Positions 1,391 to 47,323 of a stretch of DNA of 64,000 nucleotides are shown one piece after another. Origin of the DNA: Escherichia coli (GTDB lineage Bacteria; Pseudomonadota; Gammaproteobacteria; Enterobacterales; Enterobacteriaceae); the NCBI RefSeq assembly GCF_001677475.2, contig NZ_CP015229.1. One strand, 5' to 3'. Position 1 is the stretch's first letter. Each line of letters opens with the position of its first letter. Made by a program: the position numbers and the translations under genes. The notes below the pieces were generated by a model. The model did not search any database and had not been told where the DNA came from. It was given only the letters and a program-made list of their open reading frames with translations.

Positions 1391-1466
1391 TGGTGCCCGG
1401 ACTCGGAATCGAACCAAGGACACGGGGATTTTCAATCCCCTGCTCTACCGACTGAGCTATCCGGGC
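1391..1466 (-). tRNA. pheV: tRNA-Phe (GAA anticodon)
   Basis: Reverse complement reads GCCCGGATAGCTCAGTCGGTAGAGCAGGGGATTGAAAATCCCCGTGTCCTTGGTTCGATTCCGAGTCCGGGCACCA, the E. coli tRNA-Phe sequence; the yqgA/speC neighbourhood identifies the pheV copy. Confidence 0.95.
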
Positions 1467-44214: not shown

Positions 44215-44820
44215 TCAATTCCGGCTACAGCCAAAATTACGCTCACCGGTACCGTTGACTTTGGTATACTCTTTCGCGAGATAGTCAGCACGGTTCAGCA
44301 TATCCCGTAAACCAGCATCATCATCGCGTTCCAGCCACACCACCGGCCTGGACGGAAAATTCGCCAGTGTGGCATAGCATCCGGCATCCACCCCCAGGGC
44401 ACTGCACCACGCCTGTTTAATCATCCCGGCCAGTGACCCCGGATCGCGGTAATCGCCCGCACCACACCAGGTATCACGGTTGACCAGCAGTATCAGGTGA
44501 TAGTGTTTTTTACCTTTGTTCTCCCCGAACTCCCGGGCCCAGACGTAATGCAGCCTTGTGGTATGTACGCGTTTACCTTCACGGCGCTTACGCTTCTGGT
44601 AAGCGTCGATTCGGGCTTTCAGGGCATTGATGAAGCGGGATATTACAGCCGCGTCCGTTGCTGCCGGTACATCCGGGAGACGCAGATCAACCCGCAATGC
44701 CGTCAGACGGGGATGAACATCCAGTGCGTGCAGCACCGTCTCACGGATACGTTGTTGCCAGAAGGGGTTGTATTTGTAGGTCATGGTTAAATCTCCGTAT
44801 GTTTCATACGGAATAGCCAC
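44215..44820 (-). CDS. YfjJ/YagK-like (inovirus Gp2-family) prophage-island protein
   Basis: 201 aa ...YKYNPFWQQRIRETVLHALDVHPRLTALRVDLRLPD...HYHLILLVNRD..., a family typical of CP4-type islands next to alpA. Confidence 0.6.
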   Translation of the reverse strand: MAIPYETYGDLTMTYKYNPFWQQRIRETVLHALDVHPRLTALRVDLRLPDVPAATDAAVISRFINALKARIDAYQKRKRREGKRVHTTRLHYVWAREFGENKGKKHYHLILLVNRDTWCGAGDYRDPGSLAGMIKQAWCSALGVDAGCYATLANFPSRPVVWLERDDDAGLRDMLNRADYLAKEYTKVNGTGERNFGCSRN

Positions 44821-44983
44821 GTCGTAAAAAATGCGCAGAGCCCCTGAGGTGACCTCCGGCAGGACACTGTCTCAGGCCCTCTGTGATAACCCGAACGGTC
44901 GTCTCCGGACTGACGGTTGAATTTTCAGCGTTGTTTTTTTAATGTAAAAAACCGGTTACGGGTAAGGCTGTGAGGAGGGAGTT

Positions 44984-45184
44984 ATGGTGATACGCAAAAA
45001 GAAGTGCAGGGACTGTGGAAACGCGATTACTCATAATACAGTGTGTTGCCCGTATTGTGGTTCTGTCGACCCCTTCGGCTATTACCGGAATACAGACCGT
45101 ATCGTTACCATACTGCTGGCACTGATTATTGTGGTCCTGCTGACTACTGTCAGCGTCAGTGTGTATATACTGTGTAGCTGGTGA
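44984..45184 (+). CDS. Small zinc-ribbon membrane protein (hypothetical)
   Basis: 66 aa, CRDCG...CCPYCGS zinc ribbon plus a C-terminal TM helix, GGAGGG SD upstream; could be non-coding. Confidence 0.3.
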   Translation: MVIRKKKCRDCGNAITHNTVCCPYCGSVDPFGYYRNTDRIVTILLALIIVVLLTTVSVSVYILCSW

Positions 45185-46240
45185 GATAACGGTTCATGTA
45201 TCCCCTGAGCTGACAGTGTACCGGGTATATTAAGCGTAACCGACAGGTTCTCCTTCATACCATATTAAATTTTTCCAGGTATTGCCGCTGCCTTATTTCG
45301 TCCCATACAGGAAAACTCGTCTGGGTTTCTGACAAATACGTGAAACTCACAGCCCCTCAATATCAACCACACGCTGTAAGCCGGTAATACCTGAAAATCA
45401 GCCTATTACCGCCCACGCCTCCGGTACCATTCCCTTTTGATTTCGAATTCTTTGTTGTCGCTATACCGCGTAACATCACCGATACCACACACCGGCACAG
45501 ATAACACCGGACTTATCGTAGCGCTGCTTCAATATTCAGGTGACATATTTCCAGACGGAAGCCGGCACGCGATCGTAAAATTTGCGGTCAGTTCTGCCAG
45601 CCGGTTGTCAACGGCAGAGTTAAAGGCTTCCAGCTCCGCAAGGGTAAGTTTATAACGCGTGTAGGAATTCACTTTTCCCGCGTCTCCTGACGTATTACGG
45701 GCTGCCACTTACCTGGTGTCCCGCAATACAGCCTTAGTGTTCCGTTATCGGGGATCCAGACGCACCGCAACAACCGGGGAAGTATTTTTGGTTAGAGCAG
45801 TGTCAAGAGGGATTTCTCAGCCCCTCACTCACCGGCTCAGTTTCAGGGCAGGAGCATTAATACGCTCAGTTCATGTCTTATACAGGAATGGGCACAGGGG
45901 GAGCTGGCGTGTCACTGCTGATTTTACGCATCAGCGTTCATGTATCTGCACTCTGATACAGAATGCTTCACAGCGCTCTGTTACCGGAGAGATTTACTAT
46001 CTTAGGTTATTCTGGCAAATCCTTTACGTTACTCTCTGATGACTTCTTATATTCATAATACCAATCAGACAACCTTATCCCATCGGTGATATCAGTCTCC
46101 TGCTCGCCAGGAACGGGCTGACTCACTGTAACCACCTCCGAAAACAACTCTGCAATTATCAGAACGCCTGCTTCTCTCCCTGTCCTCACGAAAACTATCC
46201 CCTCTTTATCGCGCGTGCGTGCGGAAGCATCTTTTCGCAA

Positions 46241-46256
46241 CCCCCCCCCCCCCCCC
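46241..46256. repeat. Homopolymeric poly(C)16 tract
   Basis: 16 consecutive C followed by GGG, about 165 bp upstream of alpA in an ORF-poor stretch. Confidence 0.9.
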
Positions 46257-46420
46257 GGGATTCCGCTACGGCTCTGCCATCGCAATCCCCCCGTTTATCT
46301 CCGGACAGCCAGATTCCCGATTATTTTTTACGTTTCTCCCCGGTTGTTATGCCGGTGAAGGTGGCGCGCTGTTTTCATGACCACACCGGCTGGTTTAACA
46401 ACATCCGGAGGAACATTCTC

Positions 46421-46627
46421 ATGGCTACCCCAGTTTCGCTGATGGATGACCAGATGGTCGACATGACGTTTATCACTCAACTGACCGGCTTAACCGATAA
46501 GTGGTTTTACAAACTCATCAAAGATGGGGCCTTTCCTGCCCCCATCAAACTGGGTCGCAGTTCCCGCTGGCTGAAAAGCGAAGTGGAAGCCTGGCTGCAG
46601 GCGCGGATTGCTCAGTCCCGTCCGTAA
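46421..46627 (+). CDS. alpA: AlpA-family prophage regulatory protein (MerR-like HTH)
   Basis: 68 aa MATPVSLMDDQMVDMTFITQLTGLTDKWFYKLIKDGAFPAPIKLGRSSRWLKSEVEAWL... Confidence 0.85.
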   Translation: MATPVSLMDDQMVDMTFITQLTGLTDKWFYKLIKDGAFPAPIKLGRSSRWLKSEVEAWLQARIAQSRP

Positions 46628-46705
46628 TTTTTAACCACTAACCCTTCGCCCAAAGCAGACGCAATCTCCGGCCTGCCGGCGGCGCTCTGCTGCCTGTTAT
46701 CCCCC

Positions 46706-47323
46706 GTGAGGAATATGAAAATGAAACAACAGTATCAGACCCGTTACGAGCTGCTCCATGAAAACTACCAGAAATGGCTGACCGGCTTCACCCGGCACGC
46801 CGTATCATGGGGCGTGTGTCATCCGAATATCTACTATTTCCATAATCTGACGCCCGGGTGGGTGTCATTCAATGGCGAAAAACCGGAGATTGCCATCGTT
46901 CCCCAGAGTCTGCACCGGCTGATTTATGGTCCGGACAAACGGAGCTCCCCGTCTCTGGGTGATGATCTGATAGTGAATTTATGCACCAGCGAACACCTGC
47001 TGGTTCATCATCCGATGCTGGAAGGGATCCTGCTATCTGAATGTGAGCGCCTGAAGCAACATTCTCTGGCAAACAAACTGATCAGCCTCTTCCGTCAGTT
47101 TGGCGGCACGGAGTTACGTCTCAAACTGGTCTGGCTCTGCTGGCTTGATTTAATGACCGGAAACAGCCTTGACGACTGGACGAAAAACCTGAAACACAAA
47201 TCAGAAAAAGATCTGGAGCAATGGATCATTGCACGTCAGGGTCAGAGTGAACCACTGACAAATCTGATGGATCAGTACGTGCTTATGGCATACCGTACAT
47301 CGGTTGATGCCGCTCACAGTTGA
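46706..47323 (+). CDS. Hypothetical island protein downstream of alpA
   Basis: 205-aa ORF, no family recognised; position corresponds to yfjI-like genes in CP4-type islands. Confidence 0.45.
   Translation: MRNMKMKQQYQTRYELLHENYQKWLTGFTRHAVSWGVCHPNIYYFHNLTPGWVSFNGEKPEIAIVPQSLHRLIYGPDKRSSPSLGDDLIVNLCTSEHLLVHHPMLEGILLSECERLKQHSLANKLISLFRQFGGTELRLKLVWLCWLDLMTGNSLDDWTKNLKHKSEKDLEQWIIARQGQSEPLTNLMDQYVLMAYRTSVDAAHS

Follow-up and report, generated by a model that had tools for sequence, protein, structure and literature searches.

Promoter-located contingency tracts are found in several bacteria. They include the C-tract of Bordetella pertussis fim2/fim3, the poly-C of opc and the poly-G of porA in Neisseria meningitidis, and the TA repeats of Haemophilus hif. 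To our knowledge, Escherichia coli is usually regarded as a species without repeat-based contingency loci. The tract described here is a run of 16 C in E. coli DNA, within a stretch of 64,000 nucleotides that was analysed as a whole and is referred to below as the window. Like the loci named above, it is an intergenic G/C homopolymer in the range of about 10–18 bases that lies upstream of a gene and shows slippage length polymorphism. Unlike them, it does not lie between recognisable promoter elements, it is a non-repeat in most alleles and in all paralogous island families, and it is not known to have an expression phenotype or to switch within a clone.

Neutral microsatellites pass through a life cycle of proto-repeat, birth by substitution, expansion by slippage, and interruption or decay. 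All of these stages are present among the homologous alleles of the C tract, and here too the flanks are constant while the tract length shifts. The tract differs from microsatellites in general in that it lies in multi-copy island DNA which recombines between copies, and in its base, as E. coli has few long mononucleotide repeats of G/C. According to a review, A/T repeats make up 93% of all mononucleotide repeats in K-12 (PMC7015867), and a long C run is therefore atypical for this species and unlikely to be maintained.

The gene downstream of the tract (46421..46627, plus strand) encodes a helix-turn-helix protein of 68 aa belonging to the AlpA family (PF05930, Phage_AlpA; E=3.1e-9; score 37 bits, cut-off 21). 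Its homologues are labelled 'helix-turn-helix transcriptional regulator' in RefSeq. The AlpA protein of the K-12 cryptic prophage CP4-57 is an activator of intA and of prophage excision. The two proteins share the PF05930 domain and are similar in size (the K-12 protein has 70 aa), but they are 25% identical over 60 aa. The genes of K-12 are in the order intA, yfjH, alpA, yfjI, and the 43 bp that separate alpA from yfjH upstream include no C-rich region, unlike the arrangement in the window. We rejected orthology with K-12 alpA on the grounds of the 25% identity and the different neighbours; the name alpA, used for this gene in an earlier note on the sequence, is correct for the family and not for an orthologue.

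In work on pathogenic E. coli, the hha2/hha3 paralogues are linked to the duplicated island region flu-yeeR (PMC4864382, PMC6480617); term searches of these two papers found nothing on the intergenic region and nothing on homopolymers. The duplicated flu-yeeR islands have the same backbone as the DNA around the tract, with a Hha paralogue upstream and, on the downstream side, a yeeP-like GTPase gene followed by Ag43 (flu) and yeeR. In the window, by contrast, the Hha paralogue is decayed. No description of the tract itself was found in the literature on alpA, on homopolymeric tracts or simple sequence repeats (SSRs) in E. coli, or on hha2/hha3.

The tract and its genomic setting

The poly(C) tract occupies positions 46241..46256 on the plus strand, which gives G16 on the minus strand, and direct reading of the window places it in the context ...TCTTTTCGCAA-C16-GGGATTCCGC.... 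A scan of the whole window finds it to be the only homopolymer of at least 8 bases. With a base composition of 26.2% C and 24.9% G, the calculated chance expectation for runs of 16 C or G in 64 kb, both strands included, is about 5e-5. Related island DNA from metagenome contigs, 1.14 Mb in all, contains five G/C runs of at least 9 bases, the longest of which is 11. The exact C16 allele is present in six independent complete genomes. The C16 run is confirmed and a chance origin is excluded, in agreement with the earlier note, which had called the run highly unusual; its true length could differ from 16 by one or two. The same note had placed the tract about 165 bp upstream of the regulator, and the measured distance from the end of the tract to the ATG (46421) is 164 nt.

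The tract lies inside a region of about 700 bp between the AlpA-family gene and a divergent Hha paralogue of the hha2/hha3 type (45529..45708, minus strand; partial PF05321 match). The decayed paralogue is a 59-aa open reading frame with a 102-nt indel relative to strain M172-1; hha is intact in diverged copies of the module, as in L007 and L139, and is a pseudogene in L005. The AlpA-family gene is always followed by a hypothetical gene of 205 aa (46706..47323, plus strand) that has no Pfam match and is probably part of the same operon. Beyond the Hha paralogue there is a gene for a small zinc-ribbon/TM protein of 66 aa (44984..45184, plus strand), a member of the conserved module. The left edge of the module is formed by a gene of the Inovirus Gp2 / YagK-YfjJ family (44215..44820, minus strand), which was identified by PF11726 (E=1e-45) and by the RefSeq annotation of its homologues. 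The tract region belongs to a multi-copy backbone module of flu-yeeR-type E. coli genomic islands, in the order Gp2-family gene, small zinc-ribbon gene, hha, AlpA-like gene and 205-aa gene.

Downstream of this module the window contains a yeeP-like GTPase gene and Ag43, and upstream of it IS21 and IS256 elements and a fimbrial usher of the PefC/AfrB type. A tRNA-Phe gene (1391-1466, minus strand) is present at the left end of the window, and the island with the IS21, IS256 and usher sequences lies between this gene and the module. An Rfam IS102 RNA (RF00124, 74.8 bits) is found at 51947-52183, just upstream of the Ag43 gene, where it overlaps the GATC-rich flu regulatory region.

The module copy in the window is a mosaic. 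The 410 bp at 46055-46465 differ from M172-1 at one position. Compared with the same strain, about 150 bp of the adjoining AlpA-family coding sequence contain 11 differences, and divergence is heavy in the hha region. The mosaic therefore indicates that recombination between island copies has moved the tract block, and it suggests gene conversion between the copies.

The tract is bordered on the left by a conserved intergenic block (46073..46240), which includes CGCGCGTGCGTGCG and the tract-abutting TCTTTTCGCAA and shows 86-91% column conservation in 76 distinct copies. It is missing from the most distant family, L137. The sequence CGCGCGTGCGTGCG (46210-46223) is a perfect alternating pyrimidine-purine 14-mer, potentially Z-DNA-forming. 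It is 17 nt away from the tract on the left side, and most families conserve it. On the right, the flank GGGATTCCGCTACGG...CGCAATCCCCCC (46257..46295) is peculiar to the island family that shows the tract expansion; paralogous families have GGTATACCGGTACGG in its place. This flank holds a second short run, C6 at 46287-46292. A direct repeat TCGCAA(C/T)CCCCCC is present at 46235-46247 and 46280-46292, 45 bp apart, the second copy having the stable C6. An inverted repeat GCGGAA...TTCCGC around the tract, seen by eye, was rejected as a binding site because its right arm is TACCGG in paralogous families.

An ultra-conserved core of 125 bp (46296..46420, plus strand) lies directly upstream of the AlpA-family gene. 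It shows 94-98% column conservation and is the most conserved part of the module in the 76 distinct copies, above the coding sequences. The core is near-invariant from about 46323 to the ATG across seven families that are 5-30% different elsewhere, and is patchier in 46296-46322. About 40 bp separate the tract from the core downstream of it, and the DNA in which the tract lies is not common to distant families.

Within the core a hairpin is predicted at 46332-46414, in which GUUUCUCC pairs with the Shine-Dalgarno sequence GGAGGAAC (dG -34.5 kcal/mol, z -3.0). The consensus fold has 29 pairs and contains no compensatory change within this hairpin, and a search of Rfam gave no match to it. The hairpin is predicted to hide the ribosome-binding site, and is a candidate translational-control leader or operator palindrome. 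If it is formed in RNA, transcription would start at or upstream of about 46332, and the tract would then possibly be close to the promoter or be transcribed. This possible closeness is the main reason to keep a regulatory effect of the tract in consideration. An upstream ATG at 46349, with no obvious Shine-Dalgarno sequence before it, opens a frame of 24 codons (46349-46420) which, in the family of the window, continues in the same frame into the AlpA-family gene. Other families have 2 more bases (homologous positions in L138 and L137), and in these the upstream frame ends at a TGA that overlaps the ATG (ATGA).

Alleles at the homologous site

Alleles of the family with the same right flank as the window (GGGATTCCGC) were read directly, and they range from non-repeat sequence to long C runs. 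The non-repeat CAACAACCACCC, a C-rich 12-mer, is found in ETEC1731 and CAACAACCCCCC in CFSAN061770 and strain 1428. Short runs are represented by CAACAA-C7 in AR_0067 and CAACA-C7 in a metagenome contig. The interrupted allele CAACA-C6-T-CC is present in HUSEC2011 and WP8-S18-CRE-02, and also in two metagenome contigs among the matches listed. Long runs preceded by CAACA are C13 in E22, C14 in SMS-3-5 and C15 in MS6198, and STLEFF_47 has CA-C13. Runs preceded by CAA are C10 in strain 104 and one metagenome contig, C12 in ZJ3920, C14 in APEC E18006 and ECCRA-119, C15 in FDAARGOS_497, C16 in the window and M172-1, and C18 in XDL. Tract lengths of C10, C12, C13, C14, C15, C16 and C18 have thus been read in different genomes, and C17 was inferred from match length. 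The series forms a stepwise path, which leads from the non-repeat through A-to-C changes that extend the C run at its 5' edge to variation in length, and which includes an interrupted derivative.

Paralogous E. coli copies also carry CAACAACCACCC at the position of the tract, and more distant families have TAGCCACCGGG there. Metagenome contigs were scanned with the two flanks and a free gap between them, which gave at least 120 copies. The gap is exactly 15 nt in 115 of the 120 metagenome copies among the matches listed and is filled by CAACAACCACCC-type sequence; among these copies the fixed gap spans at least five flank-defined variants. The spacing between the conserved blocks is constant in almost all non-expanded alleles, again in the metagenome copies among the matches listed.

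A second CA-rich site, ACACAAACACC, is present in the window at 51884-51897, with the yeeP-like GTPase gene on one side and the regulatory region of flu (Ag43) on the other. Its counterparts in related islands are ATA-C9 (L061 5070-5078) and C11 (L098 5826-5836), which is the same change as at the tract.

The tract region is widespread in E. coli, and the long tracts are confined to a minority of its alleles. An 801-bp query spanning the tract finds the region in 3,641 of 5,426 complete E. coli genomes, where the median copy number is 2. A 98-bp query specific for the right-flank family returns 2,157 records, 47 of which are full-length matches at 99% identity or more. Six of these 47 are exact C16; the others have total lengths of 97-99, and one record read for each length class gave CAA-C15 (97), CAACA-C14 (98) and CAACA-C15 (99). 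A further 155 records have 95-99% identity, including six with a total length of 100, one of which was read as C18. The remaining records, about 90% of the 2,157, have C6/C7 or interrupted alleles. A long tract is present in about 200 genomes, equivalent to about 9% of the flank family and about 4% of the 5,426 complete E. coli genomes.

Other species gave no match in two scans of one genome per species, one with the flank pattern and one with a core 24-mer, with the exception of a contig from a Collinsella sp. MAG. This contig (JAIJJM010000108.1, L137) is 7.2 kb long and contains E. coli island core sequence with an AlpA-family gene. It is most likely binning contamination with E. coli-like DNA.

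The length of the tract varies between otherwise identical sequences. Over 2 x 1,400 bp of flanking DNA, M172-1 (C16), XDL (C18) and SMS-3-5 (CAACA-C14) are identical to one another, and strain 104 (C10) has 2 differences in the same flanks. Since three genomes with identical flanks of 2.8 kb differ in the tract alone, the tract is hypermutable. It is the single variable site in these 2.8 kb, and must therefore change far faster than point substitutions accumulate. A slippage-prone tract, as had been proposed for a homopolymer of this length, is borne out by the variation from C10 to C18 between strains. Equal tract lengths are found in the apparent isolate pairs MSB1_7A/3B, DETEC-P649/P666, KN13-4/KN12-1 and GN03551/GN03139, so the lengths are reproducible and are not assembly noise.

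Alternative explanations

The earlier note had raised assembly or polishing error as an alternative, in which the true run would be short and the 16 C's would result from homopolymer miscalling. Such miscounts do occur with long-read assemblers, and C15, C16 and C17 are all present among the complete genomes, so that part of the scatter may be error; differences of plus or minus one between assemblies may likewise include some sequencing error. However, long tracts are found at exactly the same site in about 200 complete genomes from many laboratories. They include CAACA-C14 in SMS-3-5, which we take to be a Sanger-era genome, and a run of C10 is present in an Illumina metagenome contig. We reject an artefact as extremely improbable because of these two sequences, because the apparent isolate pairs agree exactly in length, and because differences of 4-8 bases, such as that between C10 and C18, are too large for miscalls. 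A genuine tract of this kind could be a phase-variable switch, in which slippage would alter the tract length and, with it, the distance or the helical phase at which an upstream element stands to the core promoter. Transcription would thereby be switched or tuned, either for the AlpA-family regulator or for the divergent hha paralogue, and cells would differ in island regulation or excision. The hypermutability of the tract is consistent with this, as is its location 164 nt upstream of a regulator gene, between conserved blocks that are otherwise 12 nt apart; there is also a general analogy with the promoter C/G tracts of Bordetella fim and Neisseria opc/porA. As in contingency loci, the tract is of slippable length (about 8 or more) and polymorphic between strains. 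We nevertheless consider a switch unlikely. A consensus scan found no sigma-70-like hexamer pair spanning or abutting the tract at 9/12 matches, and a relaxed consensus-based scan at 8/12 or more, with spacers of 15-19 nt, found none flanking it on either strand. The best flanking hexamers, TTCGCA...GGGATT, reach 6/12 by eye. Judged by consensus, the tract lies neither between a -35 and a -10 element nor between an activator site and a core promoter. Relaxed promoter matches elsewhere, such as ATAACA-19-AATAAT on the minus strand (46350-46320), were rejected as chance-level. Contingency loci are repeats in every strain, whereas here about 90% of the flank family has C6/C7 or an interrupted run and all other island families have a non-repeat. 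The tract is also outside the universal core and is absent in distant families that keep the core, and the equal lengths in apparent isolate pairs count against frequent switching of this kind. The phase-variable promoter or spacer element that the earlier note had envisaged is thus not upheld. It is quite unlikely that some strains carry a true SSR switch, in which slippage between C10 and C18 would tune or switch the AlpA-family regulator or excision factor of a flu-yeeR-type island. Such a switch could act through the phasing of a promoter, through Rho loaded onto poly(C) RNA or, in tracts of 15 or more, through a G-quadruplex.

An action at the level of RNA or of structure is very unlikely. 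Poly(C) is the classical best activator of Rho, and if the region is transcribed rightward, the tract in about 300 nt of C-rich, G-poor RNA would be a strong Rho loading (rut) site limiting read-through into the AlpA-family gene. Alternatively, transcription or replication could be impeded by a three-layer G-quadruplex of the minus-strand G16 or by an i-motif of the C strand. Over 46050-46350 the plus strand has 110 C and 49 G and a GC skew of -0.36 to -0.44, a rut-like composition with a C/G ratio of 2.2 over 301 nt, rightward transcription being assumed. When the tract is left out, the same segment has 94 C and 49 G. The C-rich character is older than the tract, however, and the tract is dispensed with in most alleles. 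With its G-quadruplex option, ViennaRNA predicts a 3-layer G-quadruplex on the minus strand (-62.4 against -32.6 kcal/mol); three layers need at least 15 G, and G16 is just long enough. Also against an action of this kind, the tract is unpaired in the plus-strand fold, and the fold of the whole region (46200-46435) has no excess stability over shuffled sequences (z 0.12); the core hairpin alone stands out. Rfam gave nothing at the tract, either at the gathering threshold over the whole window or with E up to 5 over 44800-46800, where matches to SNORA25 and Hrs1 were rejected as chance-level. Open reading frames across the tract (46007-46285 on the minus strand; 46215-46358 and 46219-46380 on the plus strand) were rejected because the length differences between alleles are not multiples of 3 and RefSeq has no gene there.

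Origin and significance of the tract

The best reading of the C16 tract is that of a recently born, hypermutable mononucleotide microsatellite, as opposed to a conserved regulatory device. The comparative data fit the microsatellite life cycle better than they fit a maintained contingency locus. A proto-repeat is present, as the homologous position holds the non-repeat CAACAACCACCC. The tract evolves faster than its flanks, there being 0 differences in 2.8 kb among the C16, C18 and CAACA-C14 alleles. Interrupted, stabilised derivatives are represented by the CAACA-C6-T-CC alleles.

We propose that CAACAACCACCC was the ancestral state and that its C run was extended in one island family, where A-to-C substitutions at the edge of this run produced C6, C7 and longer runs by fusion. 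These substitutions may have been caused by transient misalignment ('dislocation'). Past about 8-10 C, replication slippage would have expanded and contracted the run, giving C10 to C18 across strains, and in other strains a C-to-T interruption would have re-stabilised it as CAACA-C6-T-CC.

The tract is probably a largely neutral, lineage-specific by-product of this process, with at most a modulatory influence on expression. Near-neutrality is inferred because the repeat itself is poorly conserved, and any effect of the tract would be a side-effect. The expansion inserts 1-9 bp between two conserved blocks of otherwise fixed spacing, and places rigid G·C DNA at a distance of about 40 bp from the conserved control region of the AlpA-family gene, on its upstream side. 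Expression of this gene could be modulated by either change. The constant spacing in other alleles hints at a constraint that the expansion violates, and an effect on expression is therefore plausible. A counterpoint to neutrality is that many independent genomes keep long tracts (C14-C18) with no collapse to short ones. This retention could reflect selection, or just the shared recent ancestry of one island variant.

For practical purposes, the tract is a site of disagreement between assemblies and variant calls, and may serve as a fast-evolving marker for fine-scale typing of island-carrying strains. If it were a switch, it would produce heritable, reversible differences between cells in island gene expression or excision, and recombination between island copies could spread it. 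An effect of tract length on expression of the AlpA-family gene would be a rare case of repeat-based phase variation in E. coli, in which slippage is linked to the behaviour of the island. As a microsatellite, the tract provides a clean natural example of a hypermutable homopolymer that was born from ordinary sequence and then expanded, in the multi-copy, recombining backbone of an E. coli island.
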